Shown here: piece after piece, positions 1,602-59,733 of the stretch | How the letters are laid out: each line of letters opens with the position of its first letter | How positions within the stretch are numbered: position 1 is the first letter of the stretch | NCBI GenBank assembly: GCA_003635195.1 | Contig: PYIY01000075.1 | Location: forward strand, 27,608-91,607 | Direction of reading: 5' to 3' | DNA from: Candidatus Poribacteria bacterium | Lineage (GTDB): Bacteria; Poribacteria; WGA-4E; WGA-3G | Length of the DNA: 64,000 nt | Program-made: the position numbers and the translations under genes | The notes under the pieces: generated by a model | What the model saw: only the letters and a program-made list of their open reading frames with translations | Told to the model about the DNA's origin: nothing | Databases searched by the model: none

Positions 1602-1736
1602 ATTTCCAACCCTACCCTCTTCTCTTTCCTTCAAAGTCCACTCTTTTTTCAGAATTAAGCAACCGTTTTGCCCCTAAATTGCGTCACTATAGGTTGATAT
1701 GTCATGAATCAACTATCGCTTTCTGGGAGGTATCTG

Positions 1737-2930
1737 ATGAAAAACAACGATGTTGCACTTATTCAACGAGTTCTCGCTGGTGATGAAACCGCTTTTGCGG
1801 AACTGGTGAATAAATATCAAAAGCCGGTTCATACACTCGCTTGGCGAAAAATCGGGGATTTTCATATCGCCGAGGACATCACCCAGGAGGTCTTCCTGAA
1901 AGTGTATCAGAGACTCCATATCCTGAAAGATCCGAACCAGTTTTCTGGATGGCTTTATGTGATTACAGCGAACTTATGTGCCACATGGCTCCGCAAAAAA
2001 CGGATACAGACGCAACCGTTGAAGGACACAGAAACAACGATGATACAAGAAGATGCTTATTCTCGACACGTTGTAGAAGAGCGGATGAAAACCACAGCGG
2101 AATCACAACGCGAAGTCGTCAAAAAGCTGCTCGCGAAGCTAAAAGAGAGTGAACGCACAGTGATGGCACTCCACTACCTTGGCGAGATGACGGTTACGGA
2201 AATTAGCCGATTCTTAGGCGTGTCGGCGAGTACCATTAAAAGTCGTTTGAGACGTGCACGAAACCGTTTAAAAGAGGAGGAACCGATGATTAGAGAAGCA
2301 CTCGACCATTTTCAAATCACACCGAATCTTACAGAGAATATCATGTGCGAGATTTCGCGGTTGAAACCGGTTGCACCCTCTAACAGTAAGCCGTTAGTAC
2401 CGTGGGCAATCGGCGTTTCTACGGTAGCCGTCATCTTTTTGATGTTAGGCATAGGCAATCAGTATATGTCGCGTTTCCAAAAGCCGTATAGTTTCGACGC
2501 GCCATCAGAGATGACAGTCGAGTTGATTGAAGCACCCGTTGTGCTAAACCTTGAAGCCAAGCCGGATATTCGGACGCAATTTGGGAGTGTTCGGACACCG
2601 AGCGAGGGAAAGATCTCCAACCAACAGCCTAATGACGTTTCAGCTTCGGCTGCAGAAGCAGAAGCAGATGAGACAGTTAAAAACCACGCGCATTGGAAGT
2701 TGCCCAAAGCCGCAAAAGCGCGCTTCGGAAAAGGTGGGATTACTACAATTCAGTTTTCACCGGATGGCACCGTACTCGCAGTCGGTAGCAATATCGGGGT
2801 ATGGCTGTATGATGTGGAAACGGGTGAGGAGAAATCTTTGTTTGCCGGTGGAATGTGTCAAGCCCTCAGATTTTCGCCGGATGGCCGTTTCCTAACCAGC
2901 TCTTCTGCGGAGACGCTCATCCAATTGTAG
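1737..2930 (+). CDS. ECF-type RNA polymerase sigma-70 factor fused to a TM helix and the first WD40 repeats (N-terminal part of an interrupted fusion gene)
   Basis: GGGAGG at 1725-1730 lies 6 nt before ATG 1737. ECF region 2 and 4 motifs are present (DITQEVFLKVYQRL, ISRFLGVSASTIKSRLRRARNRL). A TM helix follows (LVPWAIGVSTVAVIFLMLGIG), then WD40 units (QFSPDGTVLAVGS..VWLYDVETG, RFSPDGRFLTSS). The ORF stops at TAG 2928-2930, in the same frame as the next ORF. Confidence 0.8.
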   Translation: MKNNDVALIQRVLAGDETAFAELVNKYQKPVHTLAWRKIGDFHIAEDITQEVFLKVYQRLHILKDPNQFSGWLYVITANLCATWLRKKRIQTQPLKDTETTMIQEDAYSRHVVEERMKTTAESQREVVKKLLAKLKESERTVMALHYLGEMTVTEISRFLGVSASTIKSRLRRARNRLKEEEPMIREALDHFQITPNLTENIMCEISRLKPVAPSNSKPLVPWAIGVSTVAVIFLMLGIGNQYMSRFQKPYSFDAPSEMTVELIEAPVVLNLEAKPDIRTQFGSVRTPSEGKISNQQPNDVSASAAEAEADETVKNHAHWKLPKAAKARFGKGGITTIQFSPDGTVLAVGSNIGVWLYDVETGEEKSLFAGGMCQALRFSPDGRFLTSSSAETLIQL

Positions 2931-2951
2931 GAGATCGCTACCGAGCGCGAA

Positions 2952-4769
2952 GTGCCGCTGATTGACTTGTACGGGGATGCTTCCGTATTGCGATTCTCTT
3001 CAGACGGGAAAACGCTGGTCGGTTTGAGTAGTTCGGGTGCAATTACGCGATTAAATATTGAGAACGGGAAAGGGAAAACAAAACACCTTAAAACTGGGTT
3101 GTTCGGGATCGGTCTCCTTAGTTCGGAGGATTTTAATGGTGTTTACGCGATGGCGAGCGATAAAATCGCGATCGGAAAACGGGACGGGATGATCCAGTTA
3201 TGGGACGCAGCAACCCGTAAAAAGTTATTGACGCTCAGAGGACACGTAGATTTGCCGCTTCAGCCATTAGATAAACCTGGGAATCCGCTGTTTAAAAAGA
3301 ATTGGGTCTTAGCTGTGGCGTTTTCGCCGGATGGCACCCGTCTCGCCAGTGGCAGCACAGATACGACAGTCCGATTGTCGGATACTACTGGTGACAGGGA
3401 TTCGATGACGCTGCAGAAACATACTGGACCGACAAATGTGCTGGCGTTTTCACCCGATGGAAAAATACTTGCCAGCGGCAGTACCGATAAAACAGTCCAA
3501 TTGTGGGATACCACTACCGGAGAACCCCTCACGACGCTCACCGGCCATATCAACGGTATTACGGCGTTAGCATTTTCACCCGATGGTCGTACACTCGTAA
3601 GCGGGAGTACGGATGGCACAATCCGATTCTGGCAGACAGCGACTGGGGTTCCAGCAGATACCCTTATCACTGGACACACACAATCCATAAAAGCGGCAAC
3701 CTTCCTTCAGGATCGTAGGGGCGAGGTCACCTCAAAGAAATCCGCAGAAACACCCAAGCAAAAACCCTCAAGCAAAAACCCCCTACTCGTCAGCGCGGCG
3801 TTTAACGGTGAAATTACCTTTTGGGATGTGGAAACAGCGCGGCGTAGGGACGAGGTGACCTCGCCCCTACGCCAAAATAGAGGACATCGGGATTGGTACT
3901 CAGCTTTAGCGTTTTCGCCGGATGGCACGAAACTCGTCAGTGCGGGGGCAGACGGTACGATAGTTTTCGGTGGGTTCCCTACTGGGTTCTCTGATACGAA
4001 GCCGGATAATCTAATTCGGTTGACGGATGTATCGACTGGAGACGAACTTGCGACGTTGCAGCGCGGGAGCAGCGAACTTATCTTTTCTCCTGACGATAGA
4101 ACTAAAACGGTGGCGACTCCTACGCGAGTTGGCAACATTCGCTTATGGAATACGGAAACAGGCGATGAATTGGTAATTCCTCTTAATGATGACCTGAAAC
4201 CCGGCTTCGGCGGCAATTTGCCAATGGTTTTGGCATTGGCGTTTTCGCCAGATGGTAGATGGCTTGTGAGTGGAACTACAGAAGGGGAAATCCGAATGTG
4301 GGACGTTGCGACCGGTGAAGCTTTGACCGTCTTTTCAGAACTGACAGAACCGATGGAACAAGAGCATCTGAGGCATATTTCGGCATTGGCGTTTTCACCA
4401 GACCGCGCCTTGCTCGCTGCGGGTACGCCGAGTCAACTCCATTTATGGAACGTGCGTACCGGTCATAAACTTTTTTCGGTTAGCACCGTGCATAAACGAG
4501 GCTGGCGGACATACCATGATTATCCAGGTCCGTTGGTGTTTTCACCAGATGGCGCAATTTTCGTCAGTGGACATGGCAGCGGTACAATCCAATTATGGGA
4601 TGCCAAGACTGGAGACAGAATCGCTGCGCTTGATGGGCATACGCAGCAAGTGAAGACGTTGAAATTTTCGCCTGACGGGGAAATGTTGGTTAGCACAGCG
4701 CAGGATGGCACAATCTTTTTGTGGGATTGGGATGAGGCTGTCACCGGTTCCGCCAACACCGACGAATAG
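2952..4769 (+). CDS. WD40-repeat beta-propeller protein (C-terminal part of the interrupted ECF-TM-WD40 gene)
   Basis: About 12 repeats of the type AFSPDG..L.SGS.D.T..LWD..TG. It is in frame with the ORF ending at 2930 (2931+21=2952). The GTG at 2952 is only the first possible start after the TAG. Confidence 0.8.
   Translation: MPLIDLYGDASVLRFSSDGKTLVGLSSSGAITRLNIENGKGKTKHLKTGLFGIGLLSSEDFNGVYAMASDKIAIGKRDGMIQLWDAATRKKLLTLRGHVDLPLQPLDKPGNPLFKKNWVLAVAFSPDGTRLASGSTDTTVRLSDTTGDRDSMTLQKHTGPTNVLAFSPDGKILASGSTDKTVQLWDTTTGEPLTTLTGHINGITALAFSPDGRTLVSGSTDGTIRFWQTATGVPADTLITGHTQSIKAATFLQDRRGEVTSKKSAETPKQKPSSKNPLLVSAAFNGEITFWDVETARRRDEVTSPLRQNRGHRDWYSALAFSPDGTKLVSAGADGTIVFGGFPTGFSDTKPDNLIRLTDVSTGDELATLQRGSSELIFSPDDRTKTVATPTRVGNIRLWNTETGDELVIPLNDDLKPGFGGNLPMVLALAFSPDGRWLVSGTTEGEIRMWDVATGEALTVFSELTEPMEQEHLRHISALAFSPDRALLAAGTPSQLHLWNVRTGHKLFSVSTVHKRGWRTYHDYPGPLVFSPDGAIFVSGHGSGTIQLWDAKTGDRIAALDGHTQQVKTLKFSPDGEMLVSTAQDGTIFLWDWDEAVTGSANTDE
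3714..3790 (+). repeat. Family C element copy C1, in frame inside the WD40 CDS
   Basis: Sequence cgtaggggcgaggtcacctcaaagaaatccgcagaaacacccaagcaaaaaccctcaagcaaaaaccccctac. The same GAAACACC.AGCAAAAAC..CCCTAC core occurs at 30216, 42798 and 59660. Confidence 0.7.
3843..3873 (+). repeat. GC-rich palindrome (GTAGGGACGAGG-tga-CCTCGCCCCTAC), in frame inside the WD40 CDS
   Basis: 3852-3871 is the exact reverse complement of 3714-3733 (20/20). The local hairpin has one mismatch. Confidence 0.8.
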
Positions 4770-8600: not shown

Positions 8601-9486
8601 ACTGTCCTTTCGGGATAGCACTCGGAATGAGGTGAAATTTCGCCCACTTGAAATCGCCTTCGACTTGTACGCCTTCGAGCGCACGTGGGAAAAAGATAAA
8701 TTCCGAGGCACCGAGTGATCCCTCAAAGTCGCCTAATGTGCCTCTCATGTTCGGATGCGTGATACGAACCAATTTCTGATCAATGTCTTGGATATTCTCG
8801 GTTGTGCCTTCGGGTTGAATTGGTAAATCTTGGTCGGACAGCAGTGCAAGGACACTGATATTCTCGGAGACTTTACCCTCTACATTGACCCGGAGTTCCT
8901 GGTTCAGTGTCACGCCGCGCCCGCTGCCGACTGAGATACCGGATGTTTGACTTCCGGACACTTCTAATTGGCTATCGGGAGAATAGTTGTCAGTTGTCAG
9001 TTGTCGGTTGTCAGTTAAAAATCGGTTTGTCTCATCAGACTTCTCTTTCACTGATGACTCCTGCGCTGATGGAAACCGAAGGCTATCGGGGTTTTGCTCA
9101 CCGTAAAGGTCGCGTTTATAGACCTCTTTTATTGCGAAAGGCAGCGTGCGATAGGTTATCTTTAATCTATAGGGATCGGTAATGGAATCTTGCTTTACTA
9201 TAGTAATCTTTCCCGGATAGAAATCAATTTGATAGTCCACATTTCGGACAAGGGTTTTTCCGTTCGCCGCTACCAACTGTTCACTGTCAGGGAGAATCGG
9301 CGGGTACTTTACTGTAAATTCCAGTTCACTATCTTTCAGTTCAAAGGATTCTGTTTTCTGGAGAACGGAAAAGGTGGGAAGTTTGAGGACTTTAGTCTTG
9401 TCGTCAGCGGATTCTTGTGCCGGACTTTCGGGACAAGGTAGCAGGCACAAACAGAAGGAAACGAAAAAAAAGAGTCGGATAGGCAT
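5611..9486 (-). CDS. Very large secreted, outer-membrane beta-barrel-like protein (1291 aa), family unknown
   Basis: Signal peptide MPIRLFFFVSFCLCLLPCPESPAQ. The C-terminal two thirds are long, aromatic-rich and have an alternating pattern. Two low-complexity segments are encoded by family A repeat DNA. Confidence 0.6.
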   Translation of the reverse strand: MPIRLFFFVSFCLCLLPCPESPAQESADDKTKVLKLPTFSVLQKTESFELKDSELEFTVKYPPILPDSEQLVAANGKTLVRNVDYQIDFYPGKITIVKQDSITDPYRLKITYRTLPFAIKEVYKRDLYGEQNPDSLRFPSAQESSVKEKSDETNRFLTDNRQLTTDNYSPDSQLEVSGSQTSGISVGSGRGVTLNQELRVNVEGKVSENISVLALLSDQDLPIQPEGTTENIQDIDQKLVRITHPNMRGTLGDFEGSLGASEFIFFPRALEGVQVEGDFKWAKFHLIPSAIPKGQSTSLVLRGEEGRSEYRITVDGQYVIVKAGSEIVWLNGERMRRGENNDYVIREYGDPIVEFNSKHLITSNDTIRIDFEYIPEERAYQQNLYGLSSVFTLPGDWISLGASYAVEADLNQPEQALIQLSDADLEALRQNLLDPEEDGRSLLTAPQKHTVWGVESRVNITEKAWIEGELAYSNLDKNTYSTVDRKEVSQAWKLIGYADWDFATWTEKFRPKLNTNFDIRAMDADFLPVGASSGNRSRSRYETQYAKEGFDDAFLFDTARHSQIARDERTANFDIRVIPTDWFAVNAGVGRSEENSRQPARLLRSENSQSEGSDSPDGFQQFERTTPTNATIRDNFNWGVNFNQRSGSGNVIATRTRESRFTTGRPKEAIASEKASSKGAQLLRKLPNFRWDDYRSSSRVESEDSTQTESQQKSRQEGNLSYPIGPFRIIGTLGRLESNEARNATLNRKRNRAIGRINLVDFSWVSVNTSYELEEAYAKEPLLTVDNQPIGLSDWQRSTTARTWKVGLFSQHKSFLSGGVNLSANLARRMLKAHTDIGADTTTQLADINLQLTPLSRAIDIELTYELDKKLTSQRHEIYTNIHPHTGLLLQPGEGYYVKLDDLHYVEDPEEGTYIKIYQNVGDKPTTAVDAEFRIRFQPRQYFARRARARQQQQRESMLKPDSLRPTRNSSQSSVVSSQQDSNQQSAVSNQQRGFSVNQKPPVTDSREPMADSRLEWFLSALRGRTRLWLTEEQEVEDAVSLYLLQNLQGPDTLFGRVNQHHQLEFVPSTAFSFEINFRMGETLNKRINNQERHRQHNTWDVSFSVNPTKRLSVRANWEQRRENEKYSQFNFEDLAQGTDPTEKMGDPPATPISDLRQLEQITELNLRYDLNNSLEWSGIGGYKRTTDEEQLDEEPEARTRTFSYENRITYRLIGKGRIVFNYKLGYGQSSGGIPFAQYTFYEGISHEVRTTADYRLRKFTDLLFRLNYRLLSTKQRKPEHRLEMTISAEL
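6492..6583. repeat. Family A element, half copy (A1), inside the 1291-aa CDS
   Basis: aaaaccctcttt is followed by the 7-nt units gctgatt gctgact gctgact gctgatt gctat. This parallels aaacctcttt aactgat aactgat aactgat aactattt at 16317-16353. Confidence 0.65.
8983..9025. repeat. Family A arm (A2) inside the 1291-aa CDS
   Basis: The sequence atagttgtcagttgtcagttgtcggttgtcagttaaaaatcgg is the same arm seen at 22315 and 58652. Confidence 0.7.
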
Positions 9487-9502
9487 ATTGGCTGTCGGGG
9501 GA

Positions 9503-9632
9503 AATGGCTATCGGCTATCAGCAGTCAGCAAAGACGCAAGCGTTACAGAACGGCTTTTTTCTTTACCGGCAGCCGAAAGGTTTTTCATGCCTCGCAGTGA
9601 GAGAAAACCGCCCTGAGAGCCGATGGCTATTT
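9503..9632. repeat. Family A element (A3, subtype with AAAGACGCAAGC core)
   Basis: The arms atggctatcggctatcagcagtcagc and gagccgatggctat flank aaagacgcaagcgttacagaac..ccgaaaggtttttcatgcctcgcagtgagagaaaaccgccctga. It is near-identical in layout to 20908-21024 and overlaps the stop codon of the NHL gene. Confidence 0.8.
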
Positions 9633-15694: not shown

Positions 15695-15827
15695 TAGTTT
15701 TTAGTTATCGGTTGTTGGTTATCAGTTAAGAGGATGATCTGATTCATCAAGTCTTTCTGTTAACTGAAAGCTGAAAGATTTTTCATGCCTCGCAGTGAGA
15801 GAAAATCGGACTGAAAACTGATAACTA
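15695..15827. repeat. Family A element(s) (A5)
   Basis: Pattern tagtttttagttatcggttgttggttatcagttaagagg...ctgttaactgaaagctgaaag, followed by tttttcatgcctcgcagtgagagaaaatcggactgaaaactgataacta. Confidence 0.8.
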
Positions 15828-15833
15828 TTAAAC

Positions 15834-16208: not shown

Positions 16209-16350
16209 TAGTTGTCAGTTTGCCTTGCAGTGAGAGTCGTCAGTGGTCAGTTAAGAGAGGTCTTGGGGTGTCAAGCTCTCTGGTGGCATCTATAAGTTGA
16301 TGGAATACTACAGCAAACCTCTTTAACTGATAACTGATAACTGATAACTA
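16209..16350. repeat. Family A element (A6), full copy
   Basis: The left arm is tagttgtcagtt, followed by the box tgccttgcagtgagag. The inner stem is cagttaagagaggtctt...aaacctctttaactg, and the right arm is aactgataactgataactgataacta. Confidence 0.85.
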
Positions 16351-16351
16351 T

Positions 16352-17047
16352 TTATGTCTTATATTTAACCATTTTGATGATAGTGCCGTTGGCTTCGTAA
16401 GTAACAGAGTCCATACAGGCTTCCATCAAGAATAAACCTCTCCCACTGCTTTTGAGCAAATTCTCTGGGTCAAGTGGGTCCGCAACTTCTTTGCGTGTGA
16501 ATCCCTCGCCTTCATCCTCAACGATAATTGTGAGTTTATCTTCATCGAGAAGGAACTGCATAATCGCCTTTTTGCTTGGATTCTCTTTATTTCCGTGTTT
16601 GATCGCGTTTGTACCTGCCTCAATGGCAGCAAGGTTAATCTGCTCTTGGATCTCCTCAGCGAAATCCGAATCTTTCAAGACCTCAGTAACGACGACATCA
16701 AGGAGGTAAACATGTCGCATTGAGCTTGGGAGAGAAAGCGTAATAACTTGTTCAATTTCGGGCGCTTTGTGCGTGGATGCCTCACCCTCGTCGATAGTGT
16801 TGATGGTGAGTCCATCTTCATTAAGAATTAATTGAAAAATTGTTGATTTGCCCGGATCCTCTCTATCGCCGTGTTCTTCGATCGCGTTTGTACCCGCTTC
16901 AATGGCAGCAAGGTTAATCCGCTCTTGGGTGCCTTCATCAAAGTCCGCCTCTTTTAGGATTTCAGTGACAACAGCCCTGAGTAGATAAACATGTCGCATT
17001 GAGCTTGGGAGAGAAAGCGTAATAACCTGTTCAGTTCTCTCGCCCAC
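16352..17047 (-). CDS. RsbW/SpoIIAB-like anti-sigma serine kinase (HATPase_c) with an internal 93-aa tandem duplication
   Basis: It has a GTG start. EQVITLSLPSSMRHVYLL..INLAAIEAGTNAI occurs twice, 279 nt apart. Only the second copy continues into DEGEGF and SGRGLFLM (G boxes). Confidence 0.8.
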   Translation of the reverse strand: MGERTEQVITLSLPSSMRHVYLLRAVVTEILKEADFDEGTQERINLAAIEAGTNAIEEHGDREDPGKSTIFQLILNEDGLTINTIDEGEASTHKAPEIEQVITLSLPSSMRHVYLLDVVVTEVLKDSDFAEEIQEQINLAAIEAGTNAIKHGNKENPSKKAIMQFLLDEDKLTIIVEDEGEGFTRKEVADPLDPENLLKSSGRGLFLMEACMDSVTYEANGTIIKMVKYKT

Positions 17048-20867: not shown

Positions 20868-20907
20868 GTTTCCAAGAATAGTGCCGGACAGCGCGCTTTC
20901 TGGGCGA

Positions 20908-21024
20908 ATAGTCGTCAGCCATCAGCTGTCAGCAAAGACGCAAGCTTTACAGAACACCTCTTTTCTTTACTGATAGCCGAAAGGTTTTTCGCAGAAAAAC
21001 CGCCCTGACAACCGACTGCTATTT
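20908..21024. repeat. Family A element (A8, AAAGACGCAAGC subtype)
   Basis: Pattern atagtcgtcagccatcagctgtcagc aaagacgcaagctttacagaac..ccgaaaggtttttcgcagaaaaaccgccctgacaaccgactgctattt. It is collinear with 9503-9632. Confidence 0.8.
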
Positions 21025-22314: not shown

Positions 22315-22414
22315 TAGTTGTCAGTTATCAGTTGTCAGTTTGCCTTGCAGTGAGAGTTAAGAGACCTCTTGTGGCAGGTAAATATGTTGTTACTGCCACA
22401 GCAGACTTCTTAAC
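22315..22414. repeat. Family A element (A9)
   Basis: Pattern tagttgtcagttatcagttgtcagtt tgccttgcagtgagag ttaagagacctctt gtggcag..ctgccac ..cttcttaac. It starts 1 nt after the rsmG start codon. Confidence 0.85.
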
Positions 22415-24304: not shown

Positions 24305-24371
24305 TTTAGTAGTTGTTGGTTGTTAGTCGCTAACGGGCGGGGAAACCCCGCCCCTACGGGGTTCGTGCCCG
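24305..24371. repeat. Family A-like arm fused to a GC-rich palindrome
   Basis: The arm tttagtagttgttggttgttagtcgctaac is followed by gggcgggg-aaa-ccccgccc ctacgggg, which is related to the palindrome at 3843. Confidence 0.5.
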
Positions 24372-28697: not shown

Positions 28698-28789
28698 TGG
28701 CGGAGAGAGTGGGATTCGAACCCACGGTACTGCAAAACAGCACACATGATTTCCAGTCATGCCAGTTCAACCAACTCCTGCATCTCTCC
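28698..28789 (-). tRNA. tRNA-Ser(GGA), CCA encoded
   Basis: The acceptor stem is GGAGAGA/UCUCUCC. The anticodon loop is CUGGAAA between CAUGA/UCAUG. It has a long variable arm and the T loop GGUUCGAAUCC. Confidence 0.9.
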
Positions 28790-28795
28790 GTTTTA

Positions 28796-28920
28796 TAGTT
28801 GTCAGTTAGAGGAAGTTAACAGTTGTCAGTACGATTTTTTCTGCAAAAAAAATCTTTCAGTTCTCAGTTAAGAGACTTTGGAACTATCGAAAACCTCTTG
28901 TAACTGATAACTGTTAACTA
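28796..28920. repeat. Family A element (A12) between two tRNA genes
   Basis: Pattern tagttgtcagtt..cagttgtcagt..ttttttctgcaaaaaaaatctttcagttctcagttaagagactttggaactatcgaaaacctcttgtaactgataactgttaacta. Confidence 0.8.
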
Positions 28921-28927
28921 TCATGTA

Positions 28928-29000
28928 TGGAGCAGACGGGATTTGAACCCGTGACCTCATCCGTGCGAGGGATGCACTCTCCCAACTGAGCTACTGCCCC
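28928..29000 (-). tRNA. tRNA-Ala(CGC)
   Basis: It starts GGGGCAGUAGCUCAG and has G3:U70. The anticodon loop is CUCGCAC, and no CCA is encoded. Confidence 0.9.
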
Positions 29001-29088
29001 AGAGTTTATAAAATTTATCGGGTTTACAAAACCCTCCTACAGCATCTTGCGATGACTGATTATCGTTCACCTTGAAAATATCAAAAAA

Positions 29089-29173
29089 CGGAGAGAGTGG
29101 GATTCGAACCCACGGTGACTTGCGCCACAACAGTTTTCGAGACTGTCCAGTTCAACCACTCCTGCATCTCTCC
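29089..29173 (-). tRNA. tRNA-Ser(CGA)
   Basis: The acceptor stem is GGAGAGA, the anticodon loop is CUCGAAA, and it has a long variable arm. Confidence 0.9.
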
Positions 29174-29251
29174 TTATGATGCGTCATAACGATAGCGTCG
29201 TATACCAGAGCCATTCAATTTGAAGTCGCGATTCGGAGATCGCTCCTACTT

Positions 29252-29710
29252 TTACAGTTTATGGCGGCGTCCCTGAAAAAAGGATTTGAGCAGCGCACTG
29301 CTCTCATCTGCTAACACACCACTTACCAATTCAACCCGATGGTTTAGCCGTTCATCTTGGAGAATATTATAGAGTGTGCCGGCTGCCCCAGATTTCGGGT
29401 CTGCCGTGCCGTAAACCACCTTCGGGATGCGTGCTAAGACGATAGCCCCTGCACACATTGGGCACGGTTCTAACGTCACATAAAGCGTTGTGTCTGTAAA
29501 TCGCCAGTTCCCAATTTTTTCGGATGCCGCTTGTATAACAAGCATTTCTGCATGAGCGATAGGGCTACCAGACTGTTCACGCAGGTTGGAGGCTTCCGCG
29601 ATGCGGACCTCGTTGCTAACGAGTACTGCCCCAACGGGTACTTCACCGTTCTCGGCGGCTTGCTTCGCTAGCTCAAGTGCGTGTCGCATCCAGAAAAGAT
29701 CGCTATCCAA
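29252..29710 (-). CDS. tadA: tRNA adenosine(34) deaminase
   Basis: It has the deaminase motifs HAEMLVI and LEPCPMCAGAI. The TTG at 29710 or the ATG at 29689 could be the start. Confidence 0.9.
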   Translation of the reverse strand: MDSDLFWMRHALELAKQAAENGEVPVGAVLVSNEVRIAEASNLREQSGSPIAHAEMLVIQAASEKIGNWRFTDTTLYVTLEPCPMCAGAIVLARIPKVVYGTADPKSGAAGTLYNILQDERLNHRVELVSGVLADESSALLKSFFQGRRHKL

Positions 29711-29735
29711 GTTATGTCCAACAAATGGCTTATGA

Positions 29736-29809
29736 AGCGCCTGAGAGGATTCGAACCCCTGGCCTTCTGATCCGTAGTCAGATGCTCTAATCCACTGAGC
29801 TACAGGCGC
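29736..29809 (-). tRNA. tRNA-Arg(ACG)
   Basis: It starts GCGCCUGUAGCUCAGUGGAUUAGAGC and the anticodon loop is CUACGGA. It ends 26 nt upstream of the tadA ORF. The 3-prime boundary is accurate to about 1 nt. Confidence 0.85.
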
Positions 29810-29885
29810 GTATTGTACGGTATTGAAGCGTTAGGCAGCTACGCCTTGCCTATACGTTTTTGTGTCTGATTTGTTGCTTTAAAGA

Positions 29886-29970
29886 CGGAGAGGGTGGGAT
29901 TCGAACCCACGATGGCTTGCGCCATAACTGCTTAGCAGGCAGTCCAGTTCAACCACTCCTGCACCTCTCC
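29886..29970 (-). tRNA. tRNA-Ser(GCU)
   Basis: The acceptor stem is GGAGAGG, the anticodon loop is CUGCUAA, and it has a long variable arm. Confidence 0.9.
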
Positions 29971-29974
29971 ATAA

Positions 29975-30062
29975 TGGCGGTGGGAGTAGGATTCGAACCC
30001 ACGATGGCTTGCGCCATAACGGTTTTCAAGACCGCCGCTTTCGTCCACTCAGCCATCCCACC
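29975..30062 (-). tRNA. tRNA-Ser(UGA), CCA encoded
   Basis: The acceptor stem is GGUGGGA/UCCCACC and the anticodon loop is CUUGAAA. The variable arm and T arm are almost identical to those of Ser(GCU). It lies 4 nt from the neighbouring tRNA. Confidence 0.85.
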
Positions 30063-42654: not shown

Positions 42655-42797
42655 AATTTTTACCTCCGTATTGAAAAATCGTTAATCTCACTTGTATATA
42701 GTTTACCAGAATTTGTGGTTTGTATCAAATCGTTTTGCTGAATTCCGCAAGGCTATTTATACTAAACTTTGGACAATTTTTAGTGGGATAGACATGC

Positions 42798-42890
42798 CGA
42801 AGAAACACCCCAGCAAAAACCCCCTACGGGGCTTGGCCGCGGGGGTCCGCCTTTTCTATAGACATTTCGTCCCTACGGGACTGGCCCTCG
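42798..42890. repeat. Family C element, copy C3
   Basis: Sequence cgaagaaacaccccagcaaaaaccccctacggggcttggccgcgggggtccgcc...cgtccctacgggactggccctcg. Confidence 0.65.
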
Positions 42891-43167: not shown

Positions 43168-43274
43168 CACAGGCTAACGGTTTCCTATGCTACAAGTGAT
43201 ACTTTGCCTAGACTAACGGTCTCCTATGCTACAAGTGATACTTTGCACAGGCTAACGGTTTCCTATGCTACAGG
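43168..43274. repeat. 39-bp direct tandem repeat, 2.7 units
   Basis: Units start at 43168, 43207 and 43246. The unit is cacaggctaacggtttcctatgctacaagtgatactttg with a few substitutions. It lies about 185 nt upstream of the oxidoreductase gene. Confidence 0.85.
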
Positions 43275-43459
43275 ACAGCATTTTTATCTATCGCGCGTCA
43301 AAAACTTTACATGCCCTGCTGAATTATCTCCGATTTCCTACAAAAAGTTTGACTTCTATTTCGGCACGGTATATAATCGTTGCTATGATAAAATTGTGAA
43401 TCTCATAGCCATCTTGTTTTTAGTTTTTCGTCGTTTGAAGTTACAGGGAGGATATGGAC

Positions 43460-53764: not shown

Positions 53765-55447
53765 CTATAAGGAAATCGTTTCTGGTGGGTTGTCGCGTGT
53801 AATGAGGAGGCGTCGCTGCCATTCGGTATCATCCTGTGCCGGAAAATCGGCGCGATAGTGTGCACCGCGACTCTCTGTCCGAACAAGAGCAGATTGTGTT
53901 ATCATCAAAGCGACGTTGAGCATATTAACTGTTTCAATCGTTGCGACATCTGCGACTTCTGGACGCGTTAGCACGTTCCCTAAACTTTCCATTAAGTCTT
54001 GCAATTCGGCGAAGGTTTCTTGTAAACCTTCGCCGTTTCGTTCGATGCTAACGTTCTCCCAGAGTGCCTCTCGAATGACCTTTTTGATCGGTTCTATAGA
54101 ATAGTTTTCGGTTTTCAGTTTTCGGTTTTCAGTTAAAGCGTCTCTCGTGGCAGTCCCAGACCCCTCTTGTAACTGACTACTGATAACCGATGGCTGATAA
54201 CTCTTTGCGAATGTTGCAGCATTTGTGCCAGCGCGGGCCCCATAGACGAGGCATTCAAGCAGCGAGTTGCTTGCTAAACGATTCGCCCCGTGGACCCCTG
54301 TACATGCCACTTCTCCACAAGCATAAAGCCCTTTGAGGTTGGTTTGTGTATCTGTATTTGTGCGGATGCCGCCCATCATGAAGTGTGCGCCAGGACGGAC
54401 GGGGATTAAGTCCACGTTAATATTGAGACCATAGTGTTTTGTGGTCTCGGAGATGGTCGGAAATCGTTCAAGGATGAAGTCTTCGGATTTATGGGTAATA
54501 TCGAGGAAAACGCAGGGGAATTCGGTCAAGTCCATCTCGTTTTGAATCGCACGGCTCACGACATCCCGTGGGGCAAGTTCACCTTTCTCGTGGTATTTCT
54601 CCATAAAGCGTTCACCACGAATGCTCAAAAGTTTGCCGCCTTCGCCTCTAACGGCTTCTGAGATCAAGAAATTAGGTGCCCCATCCAAGAAGAGCGTTGT
54701 TGGGTGGAACTGGACGAATTCCATATCTATCATTTCGCATCCGGCGCGCCAGGCCGCAGCGAATCCGTCGCCGGTTGCTACTTTTGGATTAGAAGTACAT
54801 GGGTAAATCCGCCCAAGCCCGCCGGTCGCGAGAATTGTGGCTTTGGCGCGAAGACAGACGACTTGTTCCTCTACAATTGCCGTGACCCCGTAGCATGTGG
54901 GCGTATTTTCTCTTTCCAAATTGACATCCGCGTCAGTCAGTAAATCAATGGCGAAAGTGTTTTGCAGGACGTGAATCCGTTCCGTATTTAGCACGCGCTG
55001 GATAAGGACATCTGTCGTTTCACGCCCTGTTGCGTCCCCTTTGTGTACAATTCGACGGCGGCTGTGGGCAGCTTCTCGTGTAAAGCGGGGCAGCGTTCCT
55101 TCCCAATCAAAGTTCGCGCCCCAGTCTAACAGTTCTGCAACGCGTGGAATGCCTTCAGATACCATCATCTCAACCGCTTCCACATTACAAAGACCGGCAC
55201 CCGCGACACAGGTATCCTTTATGTGCAAGGCAATTGTGTCATCAAGGTTCATAGCAACAGCGATTCCACCTTGGGCGTAGTGGGTATTGCTCTCTGTCAA
55301 TGTAGTTTTGGTAATTAAGGTTACATCGGCGTGTTCACTCGCAGCGAGGGCAGCGCGCAACCCAGCAGCACCACTCCCGATAATGAGGACATCGGTGTCC
55401 CAAGTGAAATGCCGTTCTGGATTCATCGCAGATATTGGATTTTCCAT
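53765..55447 (-). CDS. nadB: L-aspartate oxidase carrying an in-frame repeat-derived insertion
   Basis: It has the FAD motif DVLIIGSGAAGLRAAL, the motifs HYAQGGIA and RGEGG, and a C-terminal ESRGAHYR. Confidence 0.9.
   Translation of the reverse strand: MENPISAMNPERHFTWDTDVLIIGSGAAGLRAALAASEHADVTLITKTTLTESNTHYAQGGIAVAMNLDDTIALHIKDTCVAGAGLCNVEAVEMMVSEGIPRVAELLDWGANFDWEGTLPRFTREAAHSRRRIVHKGDATGRETTDVLIQRVLNTERIHVLQNTFAIDLLTDADVNLERENTPTCYGVTAIVEEQVVCLRAKATILATGGLGRIYPCTSNPKVATGDGFAAAWRAGCEMIDMEFVQFHPTTLFLDGAPNFLISEAVRGEGGKLLSIRGERFMEKYHEKGELAPRDVVSRAIQNEMDLTEFPCVFLDITHKSEDFILERFPTISETTKHYGLNINVDLIPVRPGAHFMMGGIRTNTDTQTNLKGLYACGEVACTGVHGANRLASNSLLECLVYGARAGTNAATFAKSYQPSVISSQLQEGSGTATRDALTENRKLKTENYSIEPIKKVIREALWENVSIERNGEGLQETFAELQDLMESLGNVLTRPEVADVATIETVNMLNVALMITQSALVRTESRGAHYRADFPAQDDTEWQRRLLITRDNPPETISL
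54102..54202. repeat. Family A element (A13), complete copy inside the nadB CDS
   Basis: Pattern tagttttcggttttcagttttcggttttcagtt aaagcgtctctcgtggcagtcccagacccctctt gtaactgactactgataaccgatggctgataact. Confidence 0.8.
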
Positions 55448-55997: not shown

Positions 55998-58647
55998 TTC
56001 CTGATTCGGTAAGCATTGCGAGACTCCGTGCCAATTTTTCCTGCTCTATGAGCAGCCGTTGAAGCTGTGCCCGCTTTTGGGCAACGACGTTTTCTGGGGC
56101 ACGCTCGACGAAGTTCGGGTTATCCAATGTCTTTTGTGCTGCTGCTACATCCTTCACTGCCTGTTGATGTCGTTTGCTAAGCCTTGCCTGTTCCGCTTCC
56201 AGATCAATTACATCAGCAAGTGGGATATAAATGGCAAGTTCCCCAATAACCGCTTCAGCTGAAGCAGGTGGTTTCTGCAGAGATTCAGCGATAGTGATGT
56301 CAGCTACCCGTGTGAAAGCCGGTAAGTACTGTGATAGATACGTTTCGAGTCGCTCGCGCACCGCACTGTTTGGCGATTGGATATGGACTTCGACAGACGC
56401 GCCAATCGGGACGTTCAACTCACCTCGGATGCTGCGAATACTCTCAATGACTTCCGTGAGCGTTGCCATCGTGGTTTCTGCAGTTGAATTTTCACCTGTT
56501 GGCTCCGGCCAAGGGGCGATTGTTACTGAATTATCGCTCTGAGTTCTATTGCGTGGGAGTTGTTGCCAAATTTCCTCGGTTAAGAAGGGCATAAGCGGGT
56601 GGAGGAGCCGCATTGTCTGTTCCAAAATGTCTGCAGCGACCCAGAGTGCCGCGGGTTCATCTTGCGCAATTCGTTGTTTAGTGAATTCGAGATACCAATC
56701 ACAGAATTCATGCCAAAGGAAAGCATAAAGTGTTTGTGCCGCTTCGTAGAAACGAAAGTTTTCGAGGGCTTCGGTTGTTGTTTTAATGGTATGGCTGAGG
56801 CGACTCCGTATCCACGTTATTTCAAGCGTTTCCTGTTCGGTATCCACAACATCCATCTCGGCGGGAATCGGGTGTTTTTCTAAATTCATGAGGATGAACC
56901 GAGCAGCATTCCAAATTTTATTGGCGAAGCGTCTGCCTGACTCAATTTGCGATTCCAGGAGTGTGACATAAGGGTTTGGCATGCTTGCATTTACGAGCGC
57001 GAAGCGGAATGCATCTGTCCCGTAAGTGTTAATTGTCTCTACTGGGTCGATGGTGTTTCCTTTCGATTTGCTCATTTTTTGTCCCTTTTCATCGGCGACA
57101 AGTCCGTGCAAATAGACGGTTCGGAATGGCACCTTATCCATACATCCGAGTCCTAACATTATCATTCTTGATACCCAGAAGAAGAGTATGTCCCAACCCG
57201 ACACAAGAACAGAGGTCGGATAAAAAGTTTTCAGTTCTTCGGTTTCTTCTGGCCAGCCCATAGTGGAGAAGGGCCACAACCCTGAACTGAACCATGTGTC
57301 AAGGACATCTTCGTCTTGACGGAAATCCGAGGCACCACACTCGCATCGCTGTGGCGTTTCCATTGCAGCGGTAACTGCGTCGCATGCGTTGCAGTACCAT
57401 ATCGGGAGTTGATGCCCCCACCAACGTTGCCGTGAGATGGGCCAAGGTTCGATAATCTCCATCCAGTGGTAGAAACGATCTGTTTCGCGTTCGGGAATGA
57501 ACCGGACTTCGCCTTTTTGGGTCGCTTCTATGGCGCGTTGCGCGAGGGGTCGGACATTCATGAACCATTGCAATGAGATAGCAGGCTCAACAATCGTATC
57601 ACATCGGTCATGATGCCCAACAGCGTGCCGATGGGGTACAATCTTGACGAGGTAATCCAAGTTCTTCAAATCTTCCACGACCCGTTTGCGACACTCCCAT
57701 CGGGATAAACCGACATATTTTTTGGGTGCCGCTTCGCTGATATGCGCGTCTTGTGTGAAGATCGTCCGTTGTTCGAGGTCGTGCCGCGAACCGATTTCAT
57801 AATCGTTAGGATCGTGTGCGGGTGTTACTTTCAAGGCCCCGGTGCCAAATTCTCTATCCACGTAAGGGTCGGCGATTATCGGGATTTCCCTGTCACAGAG
57901 CGGTAGATGTGCTGTTTTTCCGATGACGTGTTGATAGCGTTCGTCGTCGGGATGCACAGCAACAGCCGTGTCGCCTAACATTGTCTCTGGGCGCGTCGTG
58001 GCGATTTCAAGGACGATATCACTGTCTTTCACAGGATAGCGAATGTGGTAAAAGTTGCCGTCTACCTCAACCGGTTCCACTTCAAGGTTACTGATAGCAG
58101 TGTTACATTCTGGACACCAATTGACCATGTAGGTGTCGCGATAGATGAGTCCCTGATTATAGAGTTTGACGAATGCGGTGCGAACGGCTTTCGAGAGTCC
58201 TTCATCGAGTGTAAAACGCTCACGTTCCCAATCACAAGAGCATCCGAGCTGTTGAAGTTGTGAGACGATATAGCCAGCAGATTCTGCTTTCCATTGCCAC
58301 ATCCGCTCGGTGAATTTTTCCCTACCGAGTTCAGTGCGACTCGTCCCTTCCTCGGCGAGTTTTCGCTCCATGATGAGTTCGGTAACAATACCGGCGTGAT
58401 CGGTCCCAGGCATCCAGAGCGCGTTATACCCTTGCATGCGCCGCCATCGGATGAGACAATCTTGGAGTGTATTATCAAGGGCGTGTCCGATGTGGAGACT
58501 ACCTGTGATATTCGGTGGCGGAATCACAATGGCATAAGGCGATTTGTCGGAAGTTGCCGCCGCGTGGAAGTAGTCATTTTTTTCCCAAAATTGATACCAT
58601 TTCCCCTCAATTTCTTGAGGGGCATAGATTTTTGGAAGATTCGTCAT
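55981..58647 (-). CDS. valS: Valine-tRNA ligase
   Basis: The HIGH motif is PPPNITGSLHIGHAL and the KMSKS motif is KMSKSKGN. It has a C-terminal coiled coil. Confidence 0.95.
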   Translation of the reverse strand: MTNLPKIYAPQEIEGKWYQFWEKNDYFHAAATSDKSPYAIVIPPPNITGSLHIGHALDNTLQDCLIRWRRMQGYNALWMPGTDHAGIVTELIMERKLAEEGTSRTELGREKFTERMWQWKAESAGYIVSQLQQLGCSCDWERERFTLDEGLSKAVRTAFVKLYNQGLIYRDTYMVNWCPECNTAISNLEVEPVEVDGNFYHIRYPVKDSDIVLEIATTRPETMLGDTAVAVHPDDERYQHVIGKTAHLPLCDREIPIIADPYVDREFGTGALKVTPAHDPNDYEIGSRHDLEQRTIFTQDAHISEAAPKKYVGLSRWECRKRVVEDLKNLDYLVKIVPHRHAVGHHDRCDTIVEPAISLQWFMNVRPLAQRAIEATQKGEVRFIPERETDRFYHWMEIIEPWPISRQRWWGHQLPIWYCNACDAVTAAMETPQRCECGASDFRQDEDVLDTWFSSGLWPFSTMGWPEETEELKTFYPTSVLVSGWDILFFWVSRMIMLGLGCMDKVPFRTVYLHGLVADEKGQKMSKSKGNTIDPVETINTYGTDAFRFALVNASMPNPYVTLLESQIESGRRFANKIWNAARFILMNLEKHPIPAEMDVVDTEQETLEITWIRSRLSHTIKTTTEALENFRFYEAAQTLYAFLWHEFCDWYLEFTKQRIAQDEPAALWVAADILEQTMRLLHPLMPFLTEEIWQQLPRNRTQSDNSVTIAPWPEPTGENSTAETTMATLTEVIESIRSIRGELNVPIGASVEVHIQSPNSAVRERLETYLSQYLPAFTRVADITIAESLQKPPASAEAVIGELAIYIPLADVIDLEAEQARLSKRHQQAVKDVAAAQKTLDNPNFVERAPENVVAQKRAQLQRLLIEQEKLARSLAMLTESGSENGD

Positions 58648-58651
58648 TTTT

Positions 58652-58736
58652 TAGTTGTCAGTTATCAGTTGTCAGTTATCGGTTAAGAGATTTTCGTTTA
58701 AGCACAGTTTCCTCTTGTAACTGATAATTGATAACC
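58652..58736. repeat. Family A element (A14)
   Basis: Pattern tagttgtcagttatcagttgtcagttatcggttaagagattttcg..tttcctcttgtaactgataattgataacc. It starts 5 nt after the valS start codon. Confidence 0.85.
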
Positions 58737-59659: not shown

Positions 59660-59733
59660 GGGGAACCGTAGGGATTGGGTAACCTCGAAGAAACACCTCA
59701 GCAAAAACAGCCCTACGAGTGACAAGTGTAAAC
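59660..59733. repeat. Family C element, copy C4
   Basis: Sequence ggggaaccgtagggattgggtaacctcgaagaaacacctcagcaaaaacagccctacgagtgacaagtgtaaac. Confidence 0.65.

Follow-up and report, generated by a model that had tools for sequence, protein, structure and literature searches.

Probable in-frame insertions of a REP-type mobile hairpin at two variably occupied sites of a sigma-70/WD40 fusion gene of Candidatus Poribacteria

The window examined here, a 64-kb stretch of Candidatus Poribacteria DNA (contig PYIY01000075.1), carries a gene for a fusion of an extracytoplasmic function (ECF) sigma-70 factor with a WD40 beta-propeller, and two G+C-rich palindromic segments lie in frame within a single blade of that propeller. 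We conclude, with considerable confidence, that the two segments arose as independent in-frame insertions of one family of mobile hairpins of the repetitive extragenic palindrome (REP) type into peripheral segments of the blade. An earlier note on this DNA had drawn attention to positions 3714-3733 (cgtaggggcgaggtcacctc) and 3852-3871 (gaggtgacctcgcccctacg) as exact reverse complements (20/20) separated by 118 nt, and both the match and the distance hold. Chance is no explanation for this complementarity; the 19-mer core, with up to three mismatches allowed, is found within the window only at these two places, and none of 100 dinucleotide-preserving shuffles contained a match to it. The inverted repeat is simply a by-product of the presence of one REP family in two copies that face opposite ways, the orientation of each being judged by its central base.

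The basic element of the family consists of a GTAG foot, a 9-bp G+C stem that starts with GGG, a one-base center, and a CTAC foot, 27 nt in total (GTAG-GGGCGAGGT-S-ACCTCGCCC-CTAC). The second segment (element 2) is a complete copy and, as the earlier note had it, a self-contained hairpin: the palindrome at 3844-3870 (GTAGGGACGAGG-tga-CCTCGCCCCTAC) pairs at 11 of 12 arm positions, and its predicted fold as single-stranded DNA has a free energy of -15.8 kcal/mol (z = -5.9). The first segment (element 1) had been assigned to a longer repeat, family C, and this assignment is borne out by two related copies elsewhere in the window (42797-42827 and 59668-59716), with the bounds of the element now set at 3715-3786. 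Family C emerges as a discrete 49-nt derivative of the hairpin (CGTAGGGGCGAGGTCACCTTGAAGAAACACCCAAGCAAAAACCCCCTAC), of which clean consensus copies are present in two of the public genomic loci described below (L112 and L125); the consensus translates to RRGEVTLKKHPSKNPL, as in the orthologue P0023. Relative to this consensus, element 1 contains two internal duplications that add 24 nt, and the family C insert stands between its arm and its 3' foot (3780-3786). In both elements (3844-3870 and 3715-3733), GTAG stands directly at the base of the stem, as in GT[AG]G-tagged palindromes of 20 to 50 nt (PMC8266576), and the arrangement GTAG-GGG…CCC-CTAC supplies the three G-C base pairs and the C[TC]AC second foot of the "double-foot" REPs described in PMC6006769. 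The open reading frame (ORF) at 2952-4769 reads both segments in frame, as RRGEVTSKKSAETPKQKPSSKNP and RRRDEVTSPLRQN, and the sequence between them (LLVSAAFNGEITFWDVETA) comprises the normal WD40 strands that the earlier note had recognized there, namely, strands B and C of the blade.

With the downstream ORF as the query of a protein search, about 120 orthologues were recovered (60 to 89% identity, 971 to 1,026 amino acids [aa]); those that are named are annotated as "sigma-70 family RNA polymerase sigma factor" of Candidatus Poribacteria, with Sigma70_r2/r4 and WD40 Pfam matches. Conservation of the two segments was looked for in an alignment of 120 orthologue sequences, and the site 1 insertion proved to be missing from 91/120 and the site 2 insertion from about 109/120. 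The empty form of site 1 reads (D/N)SST, in the context …ATFFQ(D/N)SST|LVSAAFNG… (for example, P0006 and P0009), and the filled forms are short (DRRGEVTSPL; P0017), medium (DRRGEVTLKKHPSKNPL; P0023), or long, the last comprising the peptide of the window, shared with P0002, and longer versions (P0003 and P0120). At site 2, most orthologues have QKSTVQN, in the context …WDVETSQKSTVQNSGH…; seven alleles carry the REP as QRRGEVTSPLRQN (the window, P0002, P0004, P0005, P0028, P0030, and P0044), and four carry another hairpin, read as QKVRLGNRTYEN (P0023, P0025, P0037, and P0047). Three types of element are thus represented at the two sites: the 27-mer, family C, and, at site 2, the GGTTCGGTT…AACCGAACC hairpin. 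The alignment identifies both segments as insertions relative to the presumed ancestral gene. Since orthologues carry either insertion alone (site 2 only in P0028 and P0030; site 1 only in P0003, P0017, and P0111), the two represent independent events and not one unit. REP-bearing orthologues (P0002 to P0005 and P0023) have intact ORFs of about 1,000 aa, and across this family of roughly 1,000-residue proteins, REP-type peptides are confined to these two sites. Filled alleles also occur, with variants of their own, in deep clades of 60 to 65% identity (P0079/81, P0111/115/117, P0116/118, and P0120). Fitch parsimony on a crude neighbor-joining (NJ) tree required a minimum of 15 changes for site 1 and of 8 for site 2, counts that give an order of magnitude only, with a few states misclassified (P0045/55/56 and P0030). 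Such patchy occupancy reflects recurrent insertion at hot spots, recurrent loss, or an exchange of alleles.

The exchange at each site was defined by setting filled alleles against empty ones in the DNA of nine orthologues. At site 1, AGT TCC ACR is replaced by CGT AGG GGC GAG GTC ACC TCG CCC CTA, and at site 2, AAG TCC ACT GTC is replaced by CGT AGG GRC GAG GTG ACC TCG CCC CTA CGC, so that acquisition of the 27-mer entails a net gain of 18 nt at both sites. Neither target-site duplications nor clean junctions were found at either site when filled and empty orthologue DNAs were compared. The replaced targets at both sites share A-R-K-TCCAC-K, and CCAC (GTGG on the other strand) fits the foot consensus C[TC]AC/GT[AG]G. 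A resemblance between the empty-site 9-mer and the center of the palindrome was also considered and was dismissed, with only 5 of 9 positions matching.

The placement of the insertions was assessed in an AlphaFold2 model built with 60 orthologues (mean predicted local distance difference test [pLDDT] score, 70.9), which consists mainly of short beta-strands, as expected of a beta-propeller. Insertion 1 (residues 255-277) falls between the strands 246-252 and 278-283 and has a pLDDT below 50; the equivalent loop in neighboring blades has about 5 residues. Insertion 2 (residues 298-307) comes after the strand 288-292, in the position otherwise taken by the outer D strand with its loop. The lowest-confidence stretches of the region, 254-275 and 301-314, match insertion 1 and overlap insertion 2, respectively. 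The earlier note had placed both insertions in propeller loops; in the model, loop placement is well supported for site 1, whereas site 2 is better described as blade periphery, where the insertion stands in for a portion of the expected outer D strand, and not as a pure loop.

The hairpin is not confined to this gene. A scan of public genomes, one genome per species, with the query GTAGGGRCGAGGTSACCTC located it at no fewer than 120 loci; by our estimate, which assumes equal base frequencies, chance alone would produce about 17 matches to the 19-mer over the entire collection. Among the matches listed, 56 belong to Candidatus Poribacteria and the others to Anaerolineae and other Chloroflexi, Nitrospirota, Zixibacteria, Ignavibacteria/Chlorobi, Acetothermia, Omnitrophota, Armatimonadota, Cyanobacteria, and other groups; many of the listed matches outside Poribacteria are perfect 27-mers, which cannot have originated by chance. 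Several copies per genome were evident among the listed loci, with seven loci in the metagenome-assembled genome (MAG) Plut_88864 and five in OZ242029.1. Copies lie within open frames of at least 200 codons in only 35/142 cases (25%), compared with 71% of random positions in the same loci, and the hairpin family is therefore mainly extragenic; by sequence, the two elements of the window belong to this dispersed, mostly intergenic family. RRGEVTSPL is the usual reading of intragenic copies, and the frame that would include the foot's TAG is excluded. Candidate intragenic copies of the same REP were noted in long Poribacteria ORFs at L111 6331-6350, L112 4320-4339, L049 3999-4018, and L001 1286-1305, and one such candidate lies within a beta-propeller-like protein (…FSPDGQQIAFESRRGEVTSPAENNDTLEIYV…). 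In addition, a repeat of about 150 nt resembling a MITE (a miniature transposable element with inverted repeats) is present in several copies per genome in Poribacteria (L010, L011, L013, L020, L025, L026, L047, L056, L095, L106, and L116), with long inverted ends (TATAGTAAAGTGAATAATTAATGAGACATTTCAC … GTGAAG…CATTAATTCTAAAGTTCACTATA) and the REP hairpin at its center. A literature search with the hairpin sequence itself returned one irrelevant human match only.

The REP is associated in related genomes with genes for REP-associated tyrosine transposases (RAYTs, or TnpA_REP). In 5 of the 120 loci listed, the hairpin lies inside a gene whose product contains MPNHxH (L013, L021, and L077 of Poribacteria, L040 of Zixibacteria, and L070 of Chlorobiaceae). 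A Pfam scan of four such products detected Y1_Tnp (PF01797) in all four, three above the curated cutoff and that of L070 just below it; an NCBIfam scan of two products matched both to the REP-associated tyrosine transposase NF047646 (E = 3e-20 and 1e-14), the former match falling below the curated cutoff because a loop splits it. A search with the L013 protein yielded more than 6,000 relatives, and among the best 120 of these, 113 (Poribacteria, about 170 to 320 aa) contain, in the loop that follows the HuH motif, one to nine copies of VGARSPRP and/or RRGEVxSP, which are two reading frames of one hairpin; family C peptides (VGGFCLGVSS and RRGFLLGCFF) also occur in this loop. The RAYTs of Poribacteria display the motifs NHFH/NHIH/NHVH (NHLH in P0121), WQRNYHDH, and YIQNNP/YMQNNP, with 14 to 160 residues of REP peptides between HuH and Y, and proteins such as P0121 and P0197 bear on this basis the signature of TnpA_REP subclass 2.4. 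A RAYT gene flanked by or containing the same REP was found in the related genomes of L128, L013, L021, and L077. The gene for P0197 (L128) has four REPs just upstream and two inside and shares a 6.65-Mb contig with that for P0044, a WD40 orthologue with the site 2 REP (L129); the association with subclass 2.4-like RAYT genes thus extends, judging from sequence, to a genome that also carries the site 2 insertion. Hairpins of the form GTAG-GGGC…GCCC were also located near 77/80 of the more distant metagenomic RAYT relatives, with stems that are lineage specific.

In three Poribacteria genomes, a RAYT-like gene and tandem REP arrays (periods of 27 to 28, 48, and 53 nt) are situated inside a type I CRISPR-Cas operon, in the order cas7, cas5, REPs, RAYT, cas3, cas4, REPs, cas1, REPs, and cas2 (L077 258-7600; L021, the same locus reversed; and L128 1-6597). 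A general link between RAYTs and CRISPR-Cas was considered and rejected, as phmmer searches with those Cas proteins matched nothing in 80 metagenomic RAYT loci, and residence of the RAYT inside the cas operon looks to be specific to one lineage.

That the element is moved by a RAYT is inferred by analogy. If it behaves as do the known REP/TnpA_REP and IS200/IS605 systems, the enzyme would recognize the folded single-stranded hairpin together with its GTAG foot, cut it, and rejoin it into new sites without target duplication. Intragenic copies would then persist only if the net change in length is divisible by three (at both sites, +18 nt for the 27-mer), if the frame avoids the TAG of the foot (here, RRGEVTSPL), and if the peptide lands in a surface segment. 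The approximately 120 orthologues constitute a before-and-after series in which three REP types replace a 9- to 12-nt target at two nonhomologous blade positions, and the match between the shared TCCAC core and a degenerate 3' foot is suggestive but unproven. It is a speculative proposal, and one that we regard as rather doubtful, that subclass 2.4 REPs choose targets similar to the feet that they carry and integrate in exchange for a short stretch of sequence; on this proposal, the putative TCCAC-type targets would be AGTTCCACG and AAGTCCACT.

Several points weigh against insertion of a mobile hairpin as outlined here. The window contains just two copies of the hairpin family and three related elements, and the RAYT link is known from related genomes and not from the window's own genome. 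The junctions are unclean, with approximately 9 to 12 nt of host sequence replaced and not merely interrupted; to our knowledge, such replacement is not predicted by canonical IS200/IS605 integration, and we know of no biochemical evidence for any subclass 2.4 enzyme. The copy of the gene in the window has a premature TAG, so the insertions may sit in a decaying gene, and the patchy distribution among orthologues could derive in part from allele recombination instead of repeated insertion. The mechanism of REP dissemination is, moreover, unresolved even for E. coli (PMC8266576).

The objection from allele recombination can be pressed further, by supposing that each site received only a few ancient insertions that were subsequently spread or removed by homologous recombination, gene conversion, and precise loss, with no hot spot or target preference. 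This is the most serious competitor and a real, if somewhat unlikely, possibility: the NJ tree resolves the closest orthologues (77 to 89% identity) poorly, their filled alleles are near-identical, and several adjoining paralogous sigma/WD40 genes are possible conversion partners. It accommodates less readily the occupation of the same sites by three element types, the distinctive variants of the deep clades, the parsimony counts, subject to the reservations already given about tree and states, and the A-R-K-TCCAC-K shared by the replaced targets. A role at the RNA level, with the hairpins retained for mRNA stability, translation pausing, or cotranslational folding of the blade, seems to us improbable. 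The earlier note had proposed that the mRNA could fold a 20-bp helix around one blade, and the predicted minimum free energy (MFE) fold of 3690-3900 does hold this long-range helix (-73.3 kcal/mol, z = -3.0); RNA-level action of REPs has been reported in other bacteria (PMC3733652; PMC8266576). The helix, however, arises automatically wherever one palindrome is present in two copies of opposite orientation, and covariation is uninformative because the arms are copies of one repeat; most orthologues work without either element and several with one only, the gene in the window is interrupted upstream by a stop codon, and an Rfam search of 3300-4300 detected no RNA family at an E value of ≤1. A function for the predicted helix is possible but unsupported.

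Two further explanations dispense with independent DNA insertions altogether. In one, the segments are native features of the protein, selected as peptide (for example, with RRGEVTSPL as a binding motif), and their palindromy is incidental. We consider this very improbable despite the use of one frame, RRGEVTSPL, not only at both sites but also in the majority of other intragenic copies, and despite the maintenance of the insertions in intact ORFs over orthologues of 60 to 89% identity: the identical DNA 19- to 27-mer is mostly intergenic, appears on both strands and in unrelated phyla, and is read in two frames within one RAYT loop (VGARSPRP and RRGEVTSP), the insertions are absent from most orthologues, and in L130 the palindrome is nearly intact as DNA despite amino acid changes. 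Scarcely any credence can be given to the other, by which 3714-3871 is one composite element resembling a MITE or a REP doublet forming hairpins (REPIN), inserted whole, with a blade fragment between 20-bp terminal inverted repeats. It would account for perfect inverted repeats 118 nt apart, and a REP paired with an inverted REP is the normal form of REPINs and bacterial interspersed mosaic elements (BIMEs) (PMC3116915; PMC8266576), but the singly occupied orthologues named above, with either insertion alone, rule out a single 158-nt element, and all 120 orthologues, doubly empty ones included, have the interior (LVSAAFNGEITFWD) as conserved host sequence. Independent insertion of two REPs remains the explanation that we favor.

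The host gene extends from 1704 to 4769 on the plus strand and is split in the window by a nonsense codon (Table 1). This TAG falls exactly at the expected position of a WD40 Trp, and its column is occupied by Trp in 116/116 aligned orthologues; for this reason, and because full-length orthologues exist, 1704-2930 and 2952-4769 are taken to be one broken fusion gene. In an orthologue of 82% identity (L129, about 2465-2470), an independent TGA replaces an Arg codon 15 codons past the position of the TAG in the window, and the two stops may reflect parallel pseudogenization, a split gene that is tolerated, or read-through. In L121, L123, L124, L125, and L129, the fusion gene has at its side, upstream of the orthologue, at least one paralogous sigma-70/WD40 gene of comparable length, which indicates a tandemly expanded family.

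The window contains other repeats. Intergenic tandem heptamers (AGTTGTC/AGTTATC, complement ACTGATA) are found at 8984-9018, 15695-15729, 16323-16353, 22315-22349, 54102-54136, 58638-58700, and other positions, and these arrays call to mind the short heptamers that cyanobacteria carry in tandem. An intergenic segment of about 100 to 140 nt, with TTTTTCATGCCTCGCAGTGAGAGAAAA in common, is repeated at 9491-9632, 15754-15830, and 20895-21024 and may be a common leader or promoter region. A 39-nt unit (AGGCTAACGGTTTCCTATGCTACAAGTGATACTTTGCCT) occurs three times head to tail at 43171-43287, overlapped by listed ORFs of 102 and 133 aa, and a cluster of six tRNA genes occupies 28698-30062 on the minus strand, comprising four tRNA-Ser (gga, cga, gct, and tga), tRNA-Ala, and tRNA-Arg.

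Table 1. Coordinates of the host gene, the two insertions, and related repeats in the window
Feature	Position	Strand	Description and basis
N-terminal part of host gene	1704..2930	+	ECF sigma-70 regions, hydrophobic segment, and first WD40 blades; ends at in-frame TAG (translation)
TAG stop in place of Trp codon (TGG)	2928..2930	+	DNA read; orthologue alignment
WD40 beta-propeller ORF, 605 aa, C-terminal part of fusion gene	2952..4769	+	Translation, orthologues, AlphaFold model
Element 1, "family C" REP derivative	3715..3786	+	Left foot and left arm GTAGGGGCGAGGTCACCTC, A/C-rich internal segment, right foot CCCCTAC; encodes RRGEVTSKKSAETPKQKPSSKNPL
Host sequence between elements, strands B and C of blade (LVSAAFNGEITFWDVETA)	3787..3842	+	Conserved in all orthologues
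Element 2, complete 27-nt double-foot REP	3844..3870	+	GTAG-GGACGAGGT-G-ACCTCGCCC-CTAC; encodes R(R)DEVTSPL
Intergenic hairpin of sister REP family (GGGCGGGGAAACCCCGCCC-CTAC)	24335..24357	+	Also in Poribacteria loci L043, L052, and L056
Noncoding partial family C copy (GAAGAAACACCCCAGCAAAAACCCCCTAC)	42797..42827	+	Repeat comparison within window
Intergenic family C-like element, both feet present (GTAGGGATTGGGTAACCTCGAAGAAACACCTCAGCAAAAACAGCCCTAC)	59668..59716	+	Repeat comparison within window

The orthologue evidence indicates that a tiny mobile hairpin can add 6 to 30 residues to surface segments of a repeat protein with the reading frame kept. It extends the system of subclass 2.4 RAYTs and double-foot REPs to Candidatus Poribacteria, a sponge-associated candidate phylum, and the identity of the 27-mer in many phyla fits horizontal spread of REP/RAYT pairs. 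RRGEVTSPL, VGARSPRPY, and RRGEVTLKKHPSKNPL, when encountered in environmental proteins, are signatures of REP DNA and not protein motifs. The series of filled and empty alleles could help to define the target choice of REPs, and a preference for targets that mimic the REP foot, if true, would furnish a concrete, testable model of their dissemination.

Among known systems, the closest is that of TnpA_REP subclass 2.4, which corresponds to Bertels group 4 and for which Quentin et al. (2018; PMC6006769) give the motifs NH[IFV]H, WQ, and YIxNNP, REPs that have a stem base of three G-C pairs and double-foot GT[AG]G/C[TC]AC ends, in-frame REPs inside tnpA_REP between HuH and Y, and a patchy spread over many phyla. 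Our elements share both feet, the three basal G-C pairs, a long perfect stem, a protein with NHxH, WQ, and YIxNNP, and the patchy multiphylum distribution; they differ in their Poribacteria host, apparently outside that survey, in residing in an unrelated WD40 gene at two fixed sites variably occupied in about 120 orthologues, and in the 49-nt family C. GTAG REPs located wholly inside ORFs, sometimes two in one gene, are described by Di Nocera et al. (2013; PMC3733652), and the resemblance is that of GTAG-tagged palindromes of 20 to 40 bp, mostly intergenic, a minority of which lie inside ORFs and add 10 to 30 residues; the hosts given there are mostly genes that serve DNA repair and replication in Proteobacteria and Opitutus, and our comparison with the 24 published GTAG families is by description and not by stem sequence. 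TnpA_REP cleaves and rejoins single-stranded REPs in vitro, although the mechanism of dissemination is still unknown (Corneloup et al. 2021, PMC8266576). With REPINs and BIMEs (Bertels and Rainey 2011, PMC3116915), the window shares two inverted REPs able to pair over a distance, but here a conserved coding sequence of the host, 118 nt long, forms the spacer, and the REPs arrived independently; because either also occurs alone, the pair is not a REPIN. Assignment to MITEs, which have terminal inverted repeats and target-site duplications, was rejected, as there is no duplication at either junction and approximately 9 to 12 nt of host sequence is replaced.

Likeness to two other groups of elements can be drawn by description. 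The Rickettsia palindromic elements that Ogata and colleagues are said to have described in 2000 are reportedly in-frame palindromic repeats in protein-coding genes, tolerated on the protein surface; RPE-1, presumably unrelated in sequence, is said to measure roughly 100 to 150 bp, to be limited to Rickettsia, and to have no identified transposase. The in-frame, surface behavior is shared with our elements, whereas the size (27 to 72 nt versus roughly 100 to 150) and the host phylum differ. The small dispersed repeats (SDR) of Nostoc, reportedly described by Elhai and colleagues in 2008, are said to be mobile palindromic repeats of 21 to 27 nt, nested in other repeats and occasionally in genes, in genomes rich in heptamer tandem repeats, and that work is not known to have assigned an enzyme to them. 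These resemble the present case in that tiny palindromes lie in heptamer-rich surroundings, as in the window, and they belong to a different phylum. The kind of element, its association with this subclass of transposase, and its occasional in-frame residence in genes have thus all been published already; what the present case contributes is a further host phylum and host gene, family C as a derivative, and a series of alleles at two fixed positions.

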